Origin: an uncultured Trueperaceae bacterium
GTDB taxonomy: Bacteria; Deinococcota; Deinococci; Deinococcales; Trueperaceae
Assembly: GCA_963815215.1 (NCBI GenBank)
Contig: CAWFFU010000003.1
Location: 352,001-416,000, forward strand
DNA: 64,000 nt
Direction: 5' to 3'
The notes under the pieces are model-generated. The model made no database searches. It worked only from the letters and a program-made list of their open reading frames with translations, and was not told the DNA's origin. The first letter of the stretch is position 1; every line of letters begins with the position of its first letter. The translations under genes were made by a program, and so were the position numbers. This document shows positions 2,912 through 58,008 of this stretch, piece after piece.

Positions 2912-4003
2912 TCAGACTCCGACGACGGGGCGTTGCGCGTCGACCTGGGTGGCCGCCATCTTGAACGCCTGAGCGCTGGTCGCCGCCGCCATGCCGGTTT
3001 CGTAGCTGATGGCGCCGCCGGCATAGAGCTCGGCCAGATGGTCGTCGAACAGCTGCATGCCGTCGAGTCTGGCATCCCTGAGCGCGTCGTAGAGCTCGCC
3101 GGTGCGCTCCTCGTCGCGCACCAGGTCCTTGATGCGCAAGGTGCCCTTGAGGATCTCCATGGCCGCCACGCGGCCACCGCCGTCGCGACGCGGCAGCAGG
3201 CGCTGCGACACGATCCCCACCAGCGATTCCGCGAACAGGATGCGCGCCGTCGAACGCTCGTGAGGCGGGAACAGCTCGATCATGCGGTTGATGGTGCGCA
3301 CCGAATCCTGGGTATGGAGCGTGCTGAACACCAGGTGTCCGGTCTGGGCCGCGCTCAGTGCTGCGGCCGCGGTGGCGTGGTCGCGGATCTCGCCGATCAT
3401 GATGATGTCGGGGTCCTGCCGCATGGCGGCGATCAGCGCCTCCGAGAACGACCGCGCGTCGACCCCGAGCTCGCGCTGGACCACGGCGGAGCGCTTGGAC
3501 TTGTGTAGATACTCGATGGGGTCCTCGACGGTGACGATCATCTTGGCGTGCACTCGATTGATCTCGTCGACGATGCGCGCCAGTGTGGTCGACTTGCCGC
3601 TGCCGGTGGCGCCGGTGACCAGCACCAGCCCCTTCTCCTGGTCGCGGAAGAACTCGATCGTCTCCTGTGACAGATTCACCACTTGCAGCGCAGCTTCCTC
3701 CGACGTGATGATGCGCAGCACGGCACTCACCGAGCCGCGCTGGCGGAACAGGTTGACGCGGAAGCGCGCCAGCCCCGGCACGCTGTAGGCGAGGTCTACC
3801 TGGTGGCGGCTCTTGAAGGCGGCACTCTGGCTCTCGTCGCACATCAGGTCGACCAAGGCCTCGGTGAAACGCGGCGGGATCGTCGCTTCACTGACCGGCG
3901 AGAGCTTGCCGTGGAGCCGGGCGAGCGCCGGCATCCCCACGTGGAGGTGGATGTCGGATGCACCGCGCTCGACCATCTGGTGCAGGAGTTCGTTGAAGTG
4001 CAT
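2912..4003 (-). CDS. pilT: Type IV pilus retraction ATPase, PilT/PilU family
   Basis: ASDIHL, RFRVNLFRQRG, Walker A GATGSGKST, EDPIEY, RQDPDIIMIGEIRD, TGHLVFSTLHT. Confidence 0.93.
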   Translation of the reverse strand: MHFNELLHQMVERGASDIHLHVGMPALARLHGKLSPVSEATIPPRFTEALVDLMCDESQSAAFKSRHQVDLAYSVPGLARFRVNLFRQRGSVSAVLRIITSEEAALQVVNLSQETIEFFRDQEKGLVLVTGATGSGKSTTLARIVDEINRVHAKMIVTVEDPIEYLHKSKRSAVVQRELGVDARSFSEALIAAMRQDPDIIMIGEIRDHATAAAALSAAQTGHLVFSTLHTQDSVRTINRMIELFPPHERSTARILFAESLVGIVSQRLLPRRDGGGRVAAMEILKGTLRIKDLVRDEERTGELYDALRDARLDGMQLFDDHLAELYAGGAISYETGMAAATSAQAFKMAATQVDAQRPVVGV

Positions 4004-6949: not shown

Positions 6950-6998
6950 GCACGCGCATGGGCCGCCGACGTGACGCGCCGGCGGCCCATGCGCGTGC
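6950..6998. terminator. Hairpin between convergent cyclophilin and thrS genes (likely bidirectional terminator)
   Basis: Perfect 19-bp inverted repeat GCACGCGCATGGGCCGCCG with an 11-nt loop; no U-tract. Confidence 0.7.
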
Positions 6999-8980
6999 TA
7001 GGCCGCGTCGCCTGCTAGCGGGGCCACCTCGGCTTGCCGCGAACGCACCGCCGCGTCCAGGTGTGCGATGAAGGCGTCGAGCGGGACCCCGTTACGGTTG
7101 CCCTCCTTGCGGCTGCGGAACGAGACCGCACCCGCTTCGGCTTCCTTGTCGCCCACGATGACGATGTAGGGGATCTTGAGCAGCTCCGCGTCGCGCACCT
7201 TGGCGTTCATGCGCTCGCCCCGGTCGTCGACCTCGGCGCGCAACCCGCCGTCGAGCAGGCGCTGCCGGATACGTTCGGCGTACTCGAGGTGACGATCCGC
7301 GATGGGCACCAGGCGCACGTGTTCCGGCGCCAGCCACAGCGGCAGGTCGCCGGCGAAATGCTCGATCATCACCCCCATGAAGCGCTCGGTGGAACCGGTC
7401 ACGGCGCGGTGGAGCACCACCGGCGTGTGCCTGTCGCCGTCCTCGCCGATGTAGCTGCACTCCAGCCGGGCTGGCTGGATGAAGTCGACCTGGATGGTGG
7501 AGAGCTGCCACTCGCGGCCCAGGGCGTCCTTGGCCATGAAGTCGGCCTTGGGGCCGTAGAACGCGGCCTCGCCGGTGGCCTCCTCGTAGGGCACGTTCTC
7601 GGCGTCGAGCGCACGGCGCAGGGCCGCGGTGGCCTTTACCCACTTCTCGTCGTCGTCGACGTACTTGCCCTCCTCACCGCGGAGGCTGAGCTGGACCCGG
7701 TAATCGGTCATGCGGTAGGTCGACAGCACCTCGCGGATCAGCCGTAGCGCCAGCGCGAACTCCTCCTGCACCTGTTCCTCCGTGCAGAAGATGTGGCAGT
7801 CGTCCTGGGTGAGGCTGCGCACGCGGGTCAGACCGGAGAGCTGGCCCGACTTCTCGTAACGGTACAGGGTGGCGAACTCCGCGTAGCGCAGCGGCAACTC
7901 GCGGTAGCTGTGGTGGCCGGCGTTGAACAGCGTCATGTGGCTGGGGCAGTTCATGGGCTTCAGCCGCATGCGGATCTCGTCGTCCTCCATGACGGGGTAC
8001 ATCACGTCGGCGTAGTTCTCGAGGTGCCCGGATCGGGCGTACAACGACTCGCGAACCATGTGCCCGGTCCATACATGCTGGTAGCCGTAGCGGGTCTGCA
8101 GCTCGCGCACGTAGCGCTCCATCTCGAAGCGTACGACTTCGCCGCGCGGGAAGAACATCGGTAGGCCGGCACCGATGTCCTCGCTGAAGGTGAACAGGCC
8201 GAGCTCACGTCCGAGCTTGCGGTGGTCGCGCTTCTTCGCCTCTTCGAGCAGCCACAGATGGTGCTTCAGCTCATCGGCGGTCTGGAACGCCACCCCGTAG
8301 ATGCGCTGCAGCATGGGGCGCCGCTCGTCGCCGCGCCAGTACGCTCCCGCCACGCTCATGAGCTTGAAGTGCGGGGCGATGGCGCCGGTGCGCGGCACGT
8401 GCGGGCCACGACACAGGTCGGTGAAGCCCTCCTCGCCCCCCTGTTCGTAGAAGGTGATGGGCTCGTCCTCGGGCAGATCCTCGATGAGCTCGACCTTGTA
8501 CGGATCGCCGCGCCGCCGGAAGCGCTCCAACGCCTCACTGCGCGGCAGCGCGTACTTGCGCAACCGCAGGTCGTCGGCGAGGATCCGGCGCATGATCGCC
8601 TCGATCGCCTCGAGGTCGTCCGGGGTGAGCGTGCGCGGCAGGTCGAAGTCGTAGTAGAAGCCGTCCTCGATCACCGGACCGACGCCCATTCGCACGGTGC
8701 CGGGCTCCGCGCCCTGTTGCGAGAAGTACTCGGTCACGGCCTGCGCCATGACGTGGGCCAGGGTGTGGCGCATCAGGTCGACGACCGCATCGTCCTTGCG
8801 GGTCAGGACGGCGACGTGGGCCTCATCGGGGACCTCGCTCATCAGGTCGGCGAGCCGGCCGTCGACCACGATGCCGAGCGCGGCCTTGGCCAACCCCGGG
8901 CCGATGGCCCGCGAAACGTCGGCGCCGGTGGCGTGCGCCGGCAGCTCCAAGCGCTTACCGTCGGGAAGAACAACATGCAT
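6998..8980 (-). CDS. thrS: Threonine--tRNA ligase
   Basis: TGS domain, HTLAH editing motif, DLCRGPH, LKPMNCP, QDDCHIF, AFYGPK, GSTERF; SD GAGGTG. Confidence 0.99.
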   Translation of the reverse strand: MHVVLPDGKRLELPAHATGADVSRAIGPGLAKAALGIVVDGRLADLMSEVPDEAHVAVLTRKDDAVVDLMRHTLAHVMAQAVTEYFSQQGAEPGTVRMGVGPVIEDGFYYDFDLPRTLTPDDLEAIEAIMRRILADDLRLRKYALPRSEALERFRRRGDPYKVELIEDLPEDEPITFYEQGGEEGFTDLCRGPHVPRTGAIAPHFKLMSVAGAYWRGDERRPMLQRIYGVAFQTADELKHHLWLLEEAKKRDHRKLGRELGLFTFSEDIGAGLPMFFPRGEVVRFEMERYVRELQTRYGYQHVWTGHMVRESLYARSGHLENYADVMYPVMEDDEIRMRLKPMNCPSHMTLFNAGHHSYRELPLRYAEFATLYRYEKSGQLSGLTRVRSLTQDDCHIFCTEEQVQEEFALALRLIREVLSTYRMTDYRVQLSLRGEEGKYVDDDEKWVKATAALRRALDAENVPYEEATGEAAFYGPKADFMAKDALGREWQLSTIQVDFIQPARLECSYIGEDGDRHTPVVLHRAVTGSTERFMGVMIEHFAGDLPLWLAPEHVRLVPIADRHLEYAERIRQRLLDGGLRAEVDDRGERMNAKVRDAELLKIPYIVIVGDKEAEAGAVSFRSRKEGNRNGVPLDAFIAHLDAAVRSRQAEVAPLAGDAA

Positions 8981-9031
8981 GCTGCACCTCAGAGATGTGG
9001 GTTGGGGATCTACAGGGCAAGGACCAGGGAG

Positions 9032-9121
9032 CTACGGGCATCCACCCGACGTTCGGCGCGTTCGGCGCGAGGTTGCGCAGGCACCGACGTGGGTCATCCG
9101 GGCAGGTCGCACGCTCGCCAT
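9032..9121 (-). CDS. Putative leaderless Thr-containing leader peptide of thrS (29 aa)
   Basis: TGTGCTACAGT, 5 nt, then ATG; MASVRPARMTHVGACATSRRTRRTSGGCP*; Thr at codons 10, 17, 21 and 24. Confidence 0.55.
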   Translation of the reverse strand: MASVRPARMTHVGACATSRRTRRTSGGCP

Positions 9122-9222
9122 GCGCCACTGTAGCACAGGCTCTTCGCCGCACTGCGCGTGACAGACGGGCTCGCGGCGACCCTAGCGGGGGCGCGAGCGG
9201 CGTGCGCGGTATCCTGGGCGCC

Positions 9223-10005
9223 ATGCACCTCGTCGCCGTCGTCAGCGCCGATGCGGACGTTCGCCATGCCCTGCGCACGTTCCGAGACGCCCAGGCCCGT
9301 TTCCTACTCCACCCGGTGCCCGCCGGCGGCATGAGCGAGCTCCTCAAAGCGCTCGCCCGCCTCGACTTCGCGGGCGCGCTGGTGCTCGACCCGAGCGCCC
9401 AGGCCGATGCGCTGCACTTCGCCGATCGCTGCTCCCTCGACGCCGAGGAGATCGGCGGCGCCGACACCGTCACCGTCACACCGGGCGGCGTGATCGCCGA
9501 GTACAACCTGGGGCGCGCCGTCGGAAGCCTGCTGGAGGCGGCACGCTGGGACGCCCGCGACGCAGACGTCGTGCTGCTCGGGGGCGGCGCCACGGCGCGC
9601 GGTGTGGCACGCGAACTGTCGAGCATGGGTGCGGCATCGCTTTCGGTGCTGGCGGAGAGCCCCGCCGACGCCGAGCACAGCCTGCCCGAGCTGGCCGCCG
9701 GCACCGCGGTGGTGGCCCGCGCGGCCCAGGACCCGCTGGTGCCCACTCTGCTGGAGCGCGCCGACCTGATGGTGCGCCTCGACGCTTCGGTGCGGGTGCC
9801 GGCGGCGCTGCTCGGCCCCCACCTGACGTTGCTGGACCTGCTGCCGGAGCCGGTGTCGGCGCTACGCAAGCGGGCCATGAGCGTCGGCGCGCTCACGTTC
9901 AACCGGCGCGACCTCGACGCCTACGCCATCGGCCTCGGCCTGACCCACATGCTGGGCGCCCCGGTCGGCGTGGAGCCGTTGCTCGAACTGTTCCACGCAC
10001 TCTGA
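9223..10005 (+). CDS. Shikimate dehydrogenase-like protein with degenerate active site
   Basis: AroE-like layout (IGGADTV, VVLLGGGATARGV); leaderless start after TATCCT 9210-9215. The ORF-track start at 8995 overlaps the thrS leader and is unlikely. Confidence 0.75.
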   Translation: MHLVAVVSADADVRHALRTFRDAQARFLLHPVPAGGMSELLKALARLDFAGALVLDPSAQADALHFADRCSLDAEEIGGADTVTVTPGGVIAEYNLGRAVGSLLEAARWDARDADVVLLGGGATARGVARELSSMGAASLSVLAESPADAEHSLPELAAGTAVVARAAQDPLVPTLLERADLMVRLDASVRVPAALLGPHLTLLDLLPEPVSALRKRAMSVGALTFNRRDLDAYAIGLGLTHMLGAPVGVEPLLELFHAL

Positions 10006-16585: not shown

Positions 16586-16638
16586 GGCCGATCAGTCTAC
16601 TCCCCGGAGCGACGCGGCCCCGTGCTACACTCTGCTCC

Positions 16639-16695
16639 ATGGTGACGCCGGTGATGAAGATCTACCTGCCGCGATGTCTGCGTCACACCGCCTGA
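16639..16695 (+). CDS. Putative leaderless Cys-containing leader peptide of cysS (18 aa)
   Basis: TGcTACACT, 7 nt, then ATG; MVTPVMKIYLPRCLRHTA*; TGT at 16675-16677. Confidence 0.55.
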   Translation: MVTPVMKIYLPRCLRHTA

Positions 16696-16763
16696 CCCTC
16701 GGTCCCAGCTACAGCCAGTGCCTTCGCGGGCGCGTTCCCGCCCGCTCTCATGCGAGGAGTGCC

Positions 16764-18182
16764 ATGGCGCTTGAGTTCTACAACAGCCTCAGCCGCAGCA
16801 AGGAAGTCTTCGAGCCGGTGGTCCCCGGCCGCGTCGGTATCTACATGTGCGGCCCTACCGTCTACTCCGAACCGCATCTGGGCCACGCGCGCGGGCCCAT
16901 CGTGTTCGACGTGCTGCGGCGCTGGCTCGAACACAGCGGCTACGTCGTGCGCTTCGTGTCCAACGTGACCGACGTCGGTCATCTATCCGACGTGGAGGAA
17001 GGCGAGGACAAGCTCCAGAAGCGCGCACAGCTCGAGCGGCTCGAGCCCATGGAGGTCGCGGAGAAGTACTTCTGGGCCTACTTCGACGCCATGGCGCGCC
17101 TGAACGTGCGGCGCCCCGACGTGGTCCCCCGGGCGTCGGGGCACATCATCGAGCAGATCGAGCTCACGCGCGTGCTGCTCGACCGGGGCTTCGCCTACCG
17201 CAAGGACGGTAACGTCTACTTCGACGTCTCCGCCTTCGAGCCCTACGGCGAGCTGTCGGGCCGCGATCCCGACGAGCTGATGGAGGGCACGCGGGTGGAG
17301 GTGCGCTCCGACAAGGACGACCCGCGCGACTTCGCGTTGTGGAAGAAGGCCGAGGAAGGGCACATCATGCGCTGGCCGAGCCCCTGGGGCGAGGGCTTCC
17401 CCGGTTGGCACATCGAGTGCTCGGTGATGAGCACCAAGTACCTCGGCGACGAGTTCGACATCCATGGCGGTGGGCTCGATCTGATCTTCCCCCACCACGA
17501 GTGCGAGCTCGCCCAGGCGCGCGCGGCCGGCAAGCCCTTCGCGCGGGTGTGGCTGCACTGGAACATGATCACGCTCGAGGGCGAGAAGATGGCCAAGTCG
17601 AAGAACCACTTCGTCACCCTCTCGAAGCTTTTCGAACGCTACGACCCGGTCGCCGTCCGCTTCCACCTGCTCCGCTCGCACTACCGCAGCGTCTCGGATT
17701 TCTCCGACGAGAGCCTCACGGCGTCGGCGCAGGGACTGAAGCGCCTGCGCGAGAGCTACCGGCAGGTGAGCGGAGGGGCCGAAGGCGAGCCCACGCCGGG
17801 GGCGTTCGACGGTCTGCGCGCGCGCTTCGCCGAGGCGATGGACGACGACATCAACACCCCCCAGGCGCTCGCCGTACTCTTCGACGGAGCGCGTGAGATC
17901 AACCGCCGCGTCGAGCAGGGTGCGAGCCCCGAGTACCGGGGCGCCGCGCGCGCGTTCTTCCACGACCTGCTCGACGGGGTGCTCGGTATCCCCGCGCAGG
18001 CCGAGGCGGCCGGTCAGACGCGCGACGCGATGGATGGACTGGTCGGTATGCTCCTGGACGAGCGGCAGCGGGCGCGCGCGCGCCGCGATTTCGACGCATC
18101 CGATGCGATGCGCGCGCGGCTCGAGGCGCTCGGCATCGAAGTCGAGGACACCCCCGAAGGGACCCGCTGGAAGCTGGCGTGA
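16764..18182 (+). CDS. cysS: Cysteine--tRNA ligase
   Basis: [46 protein letters not shown]. Confidence 0.99.
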
Positions 18183-20901: not shown

Positions 20902-21357
20902 GTGAACGGCTACGACAATCTCGGATACGGAACCCACCTGATCCTCGACGGATTCCGCGCCGATGCCGCGCGGCTCACCGACGACGCGGCGATCGCGGCG
21001 GCCCTCGAGGCCGTGCTCGGTCTGATGGGCGAGACGGGCGCCGCCGGGGTACTACTCCGCCATGATCGGGACGGCGCCGCCGGGGCCAGCGCGGCGATCG
21101 TCGGCGCGGAAGCGCACGCCTGCCTGCACGCCTTCCCGGCGCTGCGCAAACTCTCGCTCGACGCGTTCTCCGCGCGCTCGCTGCCGAGTCAGGCCGTCAC
21201 CGAGGCGTTTCTCCAACGCTTCGCGGTGGGGCGCTACGAGTCGCGCGTCCACGGTCGGGGGCGCTTGCTACCCCCCGGGCATGAGGGAATCGAGCGTGCG
21301 CTGGACGGCGATCGCGACTACGCCCGCTTGAGGTTGCGGGACCTGCTGGGAGCCTGA
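20902..21357 (+). CDS. S-adenosylmethionine decarboxylase-like protein lacking the self-cleavage serine
   Basis: GTHLILD start; GASAAIVGAEAHACLHAFP..LSLDAFS aligns by eye with the class 1B motif GVS..IAESHISIHTWPE..VDVFTC. Confidence 0.75.
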   Translation: MNGYDNLGYGTHLILDGFRADAARLTDDAAIAAALEAVLGLMGETGAAGVLLRHDRDGAAGASAAIVGAEAHACLHAFPALRKLSLDAFSARSLPSQAVTEAFLQRFAVGRYESRVHGRGRLLPPGHEGIERALDGDRDYARLRLRDLLGA

Positions 21358-27451: not shown

Positions 27452-27921
27452 ACGTCGACGATGACGGCGGTTAGCAGTTCCGGTTCTTCACGCCATGACC
27501 CTACGGGTCGACGCCGACTGGAGGTATCGAGACGCCAGCCTCCGTCGTTCAGTCCACGCAGTCGTCCGCAGAGACGATGCACCGCGGCTGACCGCAGGTC
27601 GGGGAGCAGTATCGGTCCAGCTCTCGATCGGCCTGGTAACGAGGTACCTCACGGAAGCCGACCTGCTAGACGCACCCAAGTGAGGATGGGTGCGCATCGG
27701 TCCGAGGGGCCCGGGCGCCCTGCCGGAAAGTGGGTGTCCCCCCGACCGCGGGAATCTGGGTGTCCCTAGCGGGTCCTCGATCTGCAGGCGCTTGTTGTGC
27801 TGCGTGACGGTGGGTAGAGTCACGGTCGCGCCTCCCAATCATGAGAGGTTTGTGAAGCTTTGTATGGAAGGGGCCTGGGGCAAGGGGCAATCTTGCAGAG
27901 ATTACGCTCGGAGGGGGCGGT

Positions 27922-28248
27922 ATGGAGAACTTCAACCCGTTCAAGTTCGAGGGACGCATCGGCCGGCTCCAGCTCTTCGGTTTCGGCGTCATCTGGGGCG
28001 TCATCCTGTTCATTCTCATGCTCATGTTCGGCGGCAGCAGCTCCGGCATCTTCGTGTACTTCGTCATCTGGGTCGTGTACGCCATCGCTACCGTCAGCTA
28101 CGGCATCCGGCGTCTGCACGACTTCGACAAGAGCGGTTGGTGGTACCTGCTCGGCTTCGTTCCGCTCGCGAACTTCGTGCTCGCTGTGATCCTCCTGTTC
28201 GCGCCAGGCACCCAAGGGGCGAATACCTACGGCGTCCGCGTCCGATAA
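27922..28248 (+). CDS. DUF805 (YhaH/YhaI-like) inner membrane protein
   Basis: FEGRIGR, IRRLHDFDKSGWW, PGTQGANTYG; SD GGAGG; hairpin at 28270-28300 downstream. Confidence 0.92.
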   Translation: MENFNPFKFEGRIGRLQLFGFGVIWGVILFILMLMFGGSSSGIFVYFVIWVVYAIATVSYGIRRLHDFDKSGWWYLLGFVPLANFVLAVILLFAPGTQGANTYGVRVR

Positions 28249-28552
28249 GCGCTCGCCTATCGGACCGAGACGGACGCCCTGACATACGCAGGGTGTCCGT
28301 GCCTCGTTCAGCGGCGTCGGCGCGACCAGCTTCTCCACGAAGTCTCCCCCCCAGCTCCTCCTCCGGACCTACGTCGGCACACGACTCAGCCGTGTTCCGA
28401 ATCGTCGGCTACTCCTTGGACCGTCCCGTCCACCAAGGTCCTGCGGGCGCAACCCGGCACCTTGCGAAGCGGACGCCCGAGCGGAGCGGGCCGATCGACG
28501 ACCGCGGAGGATAAGAAGTCTGTAAGACCCCTACTGGTACACCATAGTCACC

Positions 28553-28816
28553 GTGATGCGTGCGTCGTCGCTCCCCTCCGAACCTCACCGGAACAAATCC
28601 CTCTGCCCCGCCTGCGGCGCCGACAGCGTCCGCATCCTGACGTCGATCGAGGTCTCCGTGGACGTGGTGATCGATGCGTCCGCCGACGAGTTGCAGGTGA
28701 TCGACGAGGCGCTCGGGGACGCCGCCTGGGACGAGGCGACGGCCGCCGCCTGCCGGCGTTGCGACTGGCACGGGACCGTCGGCGATCTGCACGACCACCT
28801 GCTCGCCGGCACCTGA
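28553..28816 (+). CDS. Small acidic putative zinc-ribbon protein
   Basis: CPAC and CRRC pairs about 45 aa apart; host-like codon usage. Confidence 0.65.
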   Translation: MMRASSLPSEPHRNKSLCPACGADSVRILTSIEVSVDVVIDASADELQVIDEALGDAAWDEATAAACRRCDWHGTVGDLHDHLLAGT

Positions 28817-57648: not shown

Positions 57649-57748
57649 TGTGAGAATTGCCACATCATGTGCAAGTTACACATGCGCTGCACAGGTAGTC
57701 TAGGCCGGTACCGCAACATTGTCAAGAAAATACATCAGATGCTATAGT
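57649..57748. promoter_or_regulatory. Back-to-back sigma70 promoters sharing one -35 element, plus two palindromic sites
   Basis: Minus: TTGACA(57725-57720)-17nt-TAGACT(57702-57697). Plus: TTGTCA(57719-57724)-18nt-TATAGT(57743-57748) with TG extension. Palindromes at 57649-57664 and 57666-57684. Confidence 0.75.
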
Positions 57749-57783
57749 TGCTTGCCACGAGCATTCGCATGGAGAGGAGCGCC

Positions 57784-57993
57784 GTGCCCAAGCGGGAGAA
57801 AAGCAAGCGATTGCAGGTCGTCATCACCGAGGCCCAGGATTCGCTGCTCACCAAGACGGCCTATCAGCTCTCCAATCCGGAGCGCCTCGTCTCCAAGTCG
57901 GAGGTGGTGCGGCTCGGAATCGAGATGCTGAACCGCGCCGTCGAGGAGGGCCGGCTCGATCCCGAGCTGCTCAAGACGCTCGAAGAGCACTGA
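57784..57993 (+). CDS. Small ribbon-helix-helix-like transcriptional regulator
   Basis: KRLQVVIT beta strand, helix, VSKSEVVRLGI helix; SD GAGGAG before GTG. Confidence 0.8.
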   Translation: MPKREKSKRLQVVITEAQDSLLTKTAYQLSNPERLVSKSEVVRLGIEMLNRAVEEGRLDPELLKTLEEH

Positions 57994-58008
57994 GCGCGGC
58001 GCGCTCCG

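Follow-up and report, generated by a model that had tools for sequence, protein, structure and literature searches.

Leaderless leader peptides upstream of aminoacyl-tRNA synthetase (aaRS) genes have been described in the phylum Deinococcota. De Groot et al. (2014; PMC4007540) proposed 14 putative leader peptides in Deinococcus deserti, each with an ATG at the transcription start or one base after it, and eight of the 14 precede aaRS genes. For example, the peptide ahead of thrS, Deide_06409 (MKPLAHHSGLVMRGVWPRRMPYLPGLVTRTLRA), is 33 amino acids long; its transcription start site (TSS) is the A of the ATG, 186 nucleotides (nt) before thrS, and its two Thr codons, split by a single Arg codon, lie four and six codons before the stop (PMC4007540). 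The leaderless leader peptide ahead of cysS is MTALCCPSTR (PMC4007540). Here, we consider the region upstream of thrS in an uncultured Trueperaceae bacterium (assembly GCA_963815215.1, contig CAWFFU010000003.1, positions 352,001-416,000 of the forward strand). This whole stretch of 64,000 nt, with a G+C content of 70%, is the window to which all coordinates refer. The gene matches TIGR00418 (E 3.5e-200) and encodes the Pfam domains TGS, tRNA_SAD, tRNA-synt_2b (the class II core) and HGTP_anticodon. The element in question, a short open reading frame (ORF) with its promoter and the RNA that follows it, sits inside the 242-bp divergent spacer upstream of thrS (8981..9222). Judged by its sequence, the region (8981-9137) is a promoter plus leader of the Deinococcus leaderless leader-peptide kind, which is already in print as a proposed threonine sensor in D. 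deserti. As to its function, we give a probability of roughly 45% to ribosome-mediated attenuation with a C-rich tract, probably through Rho, as the effector.

Which other described systems resemble this arrangement? In Streptomyces lividans, a leaderless thrL (MKRVRPFLETTPGFVPAR) precedes thrS with one hairpin and no U-rich stretch, and the mode of termination is called unclear (Droste et al. 2021; PMC8079986, Table 4). It is like the Trueperaceae leader in being a leaderless short ORF (18 amino acids, two of them Thr) before thrS that lacks a U-rich terminator, and unlike it in belonging to the Actinobacteria, in having adjacent Thr codons in the middle of the peptide (ETT), and in showing no sequence relation. 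The polycysteine leaderless short ORFs of Mycobacterium smegmatis are the only experimentally tested leaderless case that was found: a stalled ribosome has been demonstrated to open a duplex that sequesters the ribosome-binding site (RBS) of the next gene (Canestrari et al., 10.1101/834739). There, too, a leaderless short ORF with cognate codons controls the gene that follows, but the RBS-sequestering duplex has no support at the thrS leader. The classical attenuators of E. coli (pheM-pheST, thrL-thrABC, trpL) share a leader ORF with cognate codons and the use of ribosome speed as the sensor. However, their leader ORFs are led by a Shine-Dalgarno (SD) sequence and contain runs of cognate codons, followed by overlapping terminator and antiterminator hairpins and a U-tailed intrinsic terminator; the thrS leader has a leaderless ORF with scattered Thr codons, no alternative hairpins, and no terminator that could be found. 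Rho-dependent attenuators such as tnaC, speFL and cruR consist, as here, of a short ORF and then an unstructured C-rich stretch with no intrinsic terminator (PMC12360218). There, ribosome arrest takes place at the stop codon or beside it and hides the Rho utilization (Rut) site (PMC12360218), whereas the candidate sensing codons of the thrS leader are 3-9 codons away from the stop, so that the tract would remain exposed.

The minus strand of the spacer reads TGTGCTACAGT (9137..9127, with the hexamer TACAGT at 9132..9127), then GGCGC, then ATG (9121..9119). The original prediction had named an extended -10, an ATG 5 nt later, a 29-codon ORF with four Thr codons and a 9-nt duplication, followed by 41 nt containing 19 C and 5 G and then by the SD GAGGTG, and every one of these is present where it was placed. 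Assignment of the thrS promoter to the extended -10 is well supported by the sequence because TGNTANNNT recurs before genes, because TACAGT is the only conserved one of the two TANNNT sites on the thrS strand of the spacer, and because the arrangement follows the pattern of the phylum. Across both strands of the window, TGNTANNNT occurs 13 times. Five of these sites precede a long-ORF start codon by 6-8 nt (starts at 20902, 30192 (MglB), 31371 (GcvT), 38879 and 46157); others lie just before tRNA-Trp (one), about 250 nt before a PknB-like kinase gene (one), and in the thrS and cysS leaders (one each). By this distribution, TGNTANNNT is a promoter marker in this genome. A scan of 8800-9400 found no sigma-70 two-hexamer promoter site.

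Leaderless genes are common in the window. At least 10 were recognized as TGNTANNNT sites, or TANNNT sites lacking the TG, with starts that fit family-supported frames; they have TANNNT (often TGNTANNNT) 6-9 nt before the start and no SD. Their starts are at 4003(-), 9223, 16585(-), 20902, 30192, 31371, 38879, 46157, 48321 and 57663(-), and they include pilT, yigZ, mglB, gcvT, hisC and murA. The gaps from the -10 to the start in these 10 genes are 6, 6, 6, 7, 7, 7, 8, 8, 8 and 9 nt. This fits the widespread leaderless expression of the phylum: leaderless mRNAs make up 60% of the total in D. deserti, where a TAnnnT motif immediately precedes them (PMC4007540), and in D. radiodurans the TAnnnT motif serves as the -10 at a distance of about 6-7 bp from the ORF (PMC12340547). 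On the analogy of these two species, a -10 adjoining an AUG is this phylum's way of making leaderless mRNAs (PMC4007540, PMC12340547). An ATG 5-8 nt past a -10 is expected by chance in about 3-4% of cases. The thrS RNA therefore probably begins at or beside the AUG of the short ORF, if the phylum's pattern applies.

How well is this arrangement conserved? Eighty thrS loci were retrieved by a search of a genome collection; four are from Deinococcota and the other 76 are from Chloroflexota, Firmicutes and others. The two closest loci, L001 and L002, come from Deinococcota metagenome-assembled genomes (MAGs), with 89% and 88% identity over the best segment (87-89% for threonyl-tRNA synthetase, ThrRS). 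The other two Deinococcota loci are more distant, namely L004, from a Trueperaceae MAG with 73% ThrRS identity, and L010, from a low-GC Deinococcales MAG with 67%. Within thrS, 133 of the 290 four-fold degenerate sites are invariant across the window, L001 and L002, and 61-63% are identical pairwise; by this measure the neutral sites of the three genomes are close to saturation. The alignment of the three spacers nonetheless contains an invariant run of 20 columns, CTGTGCTACAGTGGCGCATG, spanning the -10 and the ATG, and then S-CGAGC. Other invariant features are GCCCGTCTGTCACG, 13 of the 14 columns of CGCG-Y-CGAACGTCG, CCCA-W-CCC in the C-rich spacer that follows the short ORF, and GAGGT with the first thrS codons. 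Because these blocks are invariant in relatives that are near saturation at neutral sites, the -10/AUG, the CGA-ACG-UCG block and the C-rich spacer are, as far as the alignment can tell, under selection.

The short ORF itself (9121..9032) translates as MASVRPARMTHVGACATSRRTRRTSGGCP*. Its Thr codons are ACC at 9094-9092, ACC at 9073-9071, ACG at 9061-9059 and ACG at 9052-9050, and an exact 9-nt tandem repeat, CGCCGAACG, occupies 9050-9067 and is specific to the window. The codon usage is unlike that of the genes, with three CGA codons in the short ORF; CGA makes up 5% of the Arg codons in window genes. The orthologous ORFs have 26 codons in L001 (MASLRPARPDRPAGRAPSRLARRTSG) and 24 in L002 (MPSRRTSATRRTCTLTRSTRRTSR). 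In all three genomes the ORF opens at the conserved ATG and ends at a nearly identical place, and a 6-nt indel in L002 preserves the frame. Agreement among the peptides is confined to the first codons and to R-R-T-S close to the C-terminus, with one Thr codon common to all three. The frame shared by the short ORF and thrS in the window was considered as a conserved trait and rejected, the leader being 141 nt long in the window, 135 nt in L001 and 130 nt in L002.

The closest counterpart is the D. deserti thrS leader. Both come from the same phylum and precede the same gene, and both combine a short ORF (33 codons there, 29 here), a long leader (186 nt there, 141 nt here) and an SD-led thrS, as part of a set that also includes cysS. 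In each, Thr is flanked by Arg near the C-terminus (...VTRTLRA in D. deserti, ...TRRTSGGCP here, ...RRTSG and ...RRTSR in L001 and L002). Thus, two marks of the D. deserti set are found here, namely a short ORF in the leader of an SD-led aaRS gene and cognate residues in the peptide (four Thr in 29). As for the transcription start, TACAGT with TGn is present and conserved, but the gap is 5 nt rather than 6-9 nt. The TSS is mapped in D. deserti; here it is predicted from the -10 that lies 5 nt upstream of the ATG. There are also differences: at the peptide level, the two show no similarity beyond the T-R-(R)-T pattern. Function is only predicted in both species, and full-text literature searches found no functional test of Deinococcus leader peptides. 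Reads from the D. deserti library RD19-NI number 20,537 in the sense direction on the 102-nt leader ORF and 755 on the 1,950-nt thrS (PMC4007540), a difference that is not used here as proof of attenuation, since such libraries may be 5'-biased.

If the leader is an attenuator, it may work as follows. The RNA would start at or beside the AUG, and a ribosome would translate the 29-codon leaderless ORF. The supply of charged tRNA-Thr would set the speed of that ribosome over the conserved CGA-ACG-UCG (Arg-Thr-Ser) near the end of the ORF, and the rate of the ribosome would decide how much transcription or translation goes on into thrS across the single-stranded 41-nt spacer, which may act as a Rho entry site. 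In this account, the TSS, the translation of the short ORF, a threonine response and any involvement of Rho are inferred.

The spacer is the part of the leader that suggests Rho. A single-stranded tract rich in C and poor in G is the usual make-up of a Rho entry site, and a length of 41-45 nt is short for a full Rut site. The spacer has 19 C and 5 G in 41 nt in the window, 24 and 5 in 44 nt in L001, and 28 and 7 in 45 nt in L002, so that a Rut-like unstructured C-rich, G-poor stretch stands beside the stop of the upstream ORF in all three genomes while its sequence differs; the window copy contains the conserved CCCAACCC at 9006..8999. It is predicted to be more single-stranded than the ORF (unpaired probability 0.52-0.62 versus 0.30-0.36, with a window mean of 0.59). 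Such composition is rare: at least 19 C with at most 5 G is reached in 32 of the 127,920 41-nt windows on both strands of the 64-kb window, which form 11 regions. By composition, the spacer is most plausibly a candidate Rho entry site. Separately, a further tract of this kind was noticed, equally extreme in its richness in C and poverty in G (41-nt stretches with as many as 22 C and 5 G), at 28323-28372 (+), between the ORFs at 27856-28248 and 28526-28816; it is among the few such tracts outside long genes.

Several observations weigh against attenuation at thrS. First, the Thr codons do not show a consistent excess of the kind seen in classical attenuators. In the window they number four of 29, with AC dinucleotides split 4/1/1 among the frames (P = 0.11 against dinucleotide shuffles, not significant), and in L001 one of 26 (P = 0.85); the D. 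deserti peptide, with two of 33, is near the 4.7% Thr among the residues of window genes. Second, the length of the ORF is uninformative and was rejected as evidence of coding, because among all 1286 ATGs of the window 73% begin an open stretch of 24 codons or more. Third, the gap of 5 nt between the -10 and the ATG is below the 6-9 nt range of all 10 leaderless genes in the window, an RNA starting at the G of the ATG (9119) would lack the start codon, and expression in D. radiodurans is aberrant when the gap between motif and ORF is shortened (PMC12340547). Fourth, the wobble positions of the conserved block are invariant, including that of the rare CGA, and constraint at the nucleotide level would fit this equally as well as codon sensing or a deliberately slow codon pair; moreover, a search for alternative structures found none that is conserved. 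Dinucleotide shuffles fold about as well as the leader does in the window (z = -0.33), L001 (z = -1.26) and L002 (z = -0.03), and RNAalifold on the three leaders gives an unfavorable covariation term (+1.79), with compensatory change in two of 31 pairs. Fifth, six codons separate the last Thr codon of the window from the stop, and a ribosome stalled on it would leave the tract uncovered; judging from the geometry, its footprint on Thr24 would extend no further than about the stop codon. In L001 and L002 the last Thr codon is three codons from the stop. Sixth, the layout is common to two of the four Deinococcota relatives. L004 has at best a possible leaderless ORF of 16 codons (TGtAACAAT, 7 nt, ATG) that overlaps the thrS start and contains no Thr codon, and it has no C-rich tract; the region upstream of thrS in L010 contains nothing comparable to the layout.

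The first four of these points also favor another explanation, namely that thrS has an ordinary promoter with a 5' untranslated region of 139-141 nt, in which the short ORF is incidental, or is translated as part of pervasive leaderless translation, and senses no threonine, with the conserved blocks serving promoter escape, RNA stability or a binding factor. This explanation is consistent with the 173 extra transcripts of D. deserti that begin with AUG or GUG, most of which have no assigned role (PMC4007540). It has difficulty with four other findings. The ATG and the 5-nt spacer before it are invariant in three genomes near neutral saturation, an ATG follows a -10 at each of the two aaRS genes of the window, leader peptides of thrS and cysS are annotated in D. 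deserti, and Thr is strongly enriched in L002, where seven of 24 codons are Thr and all seven AC dinucleotides are in frame (7/0/0; P = 0.0004 against dinucleotide shuffles). Overall, we consider an incidental ORF possible though somewhat unlikely. The original prediction of a leaderless Thr-codon leader peptide is partly upheld: the region is the thrS promoter and leader, the ATG is conserved, and D. deserti offers a precedent, while the Thr enrichment is uneven (4/29, 1/26, 7/24). The conservation that the prediction proposed to check across Deinococcota extends to the short ORF and one Thr codon in L001 and L002, but not to L004, with its complete lack of Thr codons, or to L010.

How might a ribosome on the short ORF affect thrS other than through Rho? 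The original prediction, that stalling at Thr codons frees the SD, corresponds to a translational attenuator of the mycobacterial type, in which a duplex hides the thrS SD until a ribosome stalled on the Thr codons opens it. The mechanism has been demonstrated in M. smegmatis (10.1101/834739), and two motifs in the window can pair with the SD, ACCUC, which overlaps Thr17 (-5.4 kcal/mol as a bare duplex), and CAUCU (-2.5 kcal/mol as a bare duplex, and only -2.3 kcal/mol as a hairpin). Neither ACCTC nor CATCT occurs in either of the two relatives L001 and L002. A ribosome footprint was also modeled at every Thr codon in turn, at the stop codon and across the entire ORF, and the unpaired probability of the SD was compared with that of the free RNA: the values are 0.10 free versus 0.01-0.25 with the ribosome placed in the window, 0.07 versus 0.01-0.05 in L001, and 0.29 versus 0.28-0.31 in L002. 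A consistent rise in SD accessibility with a ribosome on any Thr codon is not supported by this model. The predicted partner of the SD is not the short ORF; the SD and AUG pair locally with thrS codons 2-6 in the window (-9.5 kcal/mol) and L001 (-9.8 kcal/mol), leaving the SD unpaired at about 0.1, and this hairpin is absent in L002 (-1.4 kcal/mol). The switch was rejected on the lack of a consistent SD response in the model and of the anti-SD motifs in both relatives, and we regard this mechanism as quite improbable. A separate feature of the same region is that thrS codons 2-5 (CAT GTT GTT CTT; 8966-8977, minus strand) are four T-ending codons in a genome with about 88% G+C at third codon positions, and they are identical in L001 and L002 (at 2504-2515), which suggests selection on the RNA near the start codon.

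The local hairpin also bears on a role for the C-rich tract that involves neither Rho nor sensing. The spacer could be a constitutive single-stranded standby site or translation enhancer that helps the 30S subunit to reach a thrS RBS with little structure, the short ORF being no sensor. Such a role has been described for unstructured 5' tails (PMC5934652), and it would suit both the predicted single-strandedness of the spacer and the hairpin around the SD and AUG in the window and L001. In L002, however, the tract is kept although the hairpin is missing, and a standby site leaves the conserved ATG and the CGA-ACG-TCG block unexplained. Standby sites are usually rich in A and U, which makes the C-rich composition unusual. 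For the tract, a standby site is a reasonable alternative to a Rho entry site, though we judge this reading improbable.

Structured regulatory RNAs fare less well. Mutually exclusive antiterminator and terminator hairpins were not found in the folds of the three leaders or their consensus fold, a scan of 8800-9400 revealed no terminator-like site, and no Rfam family matched the leader at E <= 10, in agreement with the original prediction that there is neither a T-box nor a U-tailed terminator. Could ThrRS repress its own mRNA through a leader operator that resembles tRNA-Thr, as for E. coli thrS? The only candidate is a small hairpin across the stop codon of the short ORF in the window, with a loop of CCGUA (CGU then A); a CGU is also present in the conserved block. 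Hairpin and loop are missing in L001 and L002, which led to the rejection of this candidate; in addition, inspection revealed no 7-nt loop like an anticodon arm with U-NGU-A beside the SD, and no structure signal rises above the shuffles. An operator of this type is very improbable. T-box riboswitches control thrS in Firmicutes, and the T-box model (RF00230) gave two matches before thrS of Bacillus inaquosorum (L048), which served as the positive control. The same model matched nothing at E <= 10 in 8700-9500, nothing at the gathering score in the window, and nothing at E <= 1 in L001, L002, L004 and L010, and the 141-nt leader is shorter than the 219 positions of the model. The likelihood of a divergent T-box is close to nil.

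A second case in the window concerns cysS (TIGR00435). Here, TGCTACACT at 16623 (+) is followed after 7 nt by an ATG at 16639 that opens an 18-codon ORF, MVTPVMKIYLPRCLRHTA*, with a single Cys codon; one in 18 is not significant on its own. About 65 nt past this ORF, a stretch that includes a GC hairpin, come GAGGAG and the cysS ATG at 16764 (the layout spans 16623-16766). In folding, this leader does not outdo shuffled sequences (z = +1.42). Both aaRS genes of the window, thrS and cysS, thus have a -10 and then an ATG, at a chance of about 3-4% per promoter, and they are the same two genes that have leader peptides in D. deserti. A broader proposal is that thrS, cysS and probably other aaRS genes in this branch of Deinococcota carry a distinct type of attenuator in place of T-boxes, in which one conserved cluster of slow codons close to the end of the leaderless ORF (a rare CGA plus the cognate ACG) would couple tRNA charging to Rho-dependent termination on the adjoining C-rich tract, with neither a terminator hairpin nor an RBS switch. 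We hold this generalization to be speculative and rather unlikely. The features of the thrS region are collected in Table 1.

Table 1. Positions of thrS and of the elements in the spacer upstream of it (coordinates of the window)
Feature	Position	Strand	Description
thrS, threonine--tRNA ligase	6998..8980	-	Controlled gene, 660 aa; TIGR00418 and Pfam matches
thrS SD, GAGGTG	8985..8990	-	4 nt (CAGC) before the ATG at 8980; GAGGT invariant in L001 and L002
C-rich, G-poor spacer	8991..9031	-	Candidate Rho entry or ribosome standby site; 19 C, 5 G and 15 YC dimers in 41 nt
Short ORF	9032..9121	-	29 codons, stop TAG at 9034..9032; shares the thrS frame and stops 51 nt short of that gene
Conserved block CGCGCCGAACGTCG	9047..9060	-	Codons Arg-Arg(CGA)-Thr(ACG)-Ser; the window, L001 and L002 agree in 13 of 14 columns; overlaps the tandem repeat
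Short-ORF ATG	9119..9121	-	5 nt past the -10; the transcript is predicted to begin here; unchanged in L001 and L002
Extended -10, TGTGcTACAGT (TGn + TACAGT)	9127..9137	-	Within the run of 20 columns invariant in window, L001 and L002
Conserved 14-nt block GCCCGTCTGTCACG	9157..9170	-	24 nt from the -10 hexamer, on its upstream side; the same in the window, L001 and L002

The gene on the opposite strand upstream of thrS (in the region 9210-10005, +) has no Pfam match, and its weak resemblance to shikimate dehydrogenase stays below the threshold (best E 1.9e-13, 50 bits versus a cutoff of 252). Its ATG at 9223 lies 7 nt past TATCCT, and TATACT precedes the ATG by 7 nt in L001, L002 and L004; with this spacing in all four high-GC genomes, the gene appears to be leaderless. 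Block GCCCGTCTGTCACG is about 45 nt from the -10 of this gene, and is too distant to be the -35 of either promoter; it may be the binding site of a regulator. Weak Rfam matches to mir-639, AS1726 and FMN (E 3.8-10) were rejected; they fall at 9186-9428, outside the leader and in or beside the divergent gene, with scores far below gathering. Elsewhere in the window (57740-57994, +), a strong extended -10, TGCTATAGT, about 250 nt before the PknB-like Ser/Thr kinase gene implies by its position a long leader for that gene, and the region has no Rfam match at the gathering score.

The search of thrS loci also turned up features of other lineages. In L010, the region upstream of thrS has no short Thr ORF and no Rfam match; a direct repeat of about 15 nt, GTGGTTGTAGCAAAT, occurs there twice in tandem (at about 2285-2315), some 190 nt upstream of thrS. 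In four Chloroflexota thrS loci examined, a tRNA-Val(GAC) gene lies upstream of thrS (L003 2096-2170, L008 2083-2157, L011 2098-2172, L005 269-343), at about 330 nt from thrS in three of the four. The ThrRS proteins of these Chloroflexota seem, from the alignments, to be without the N-terminal TGS part; the query matched only from residue 61-70.

What does the thrS leader mean for the Deinococcota? First, its layout exists outside the genus Deinococcus. Second, it belongs to a phylum without T-boxes at these genes, for which a catalogue of leaderless leader peptides, covering a single species, appeared in 2014. Third, if the short ORF proves to be inert, the case would warn against taking cognate codons for sensors in GC-rich leaders. 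Finally, with the SD-sequestration route unlikely, the leader offers a concrete, mutable design in which Rho and a leaderless ribosome may together serve as the sensor.

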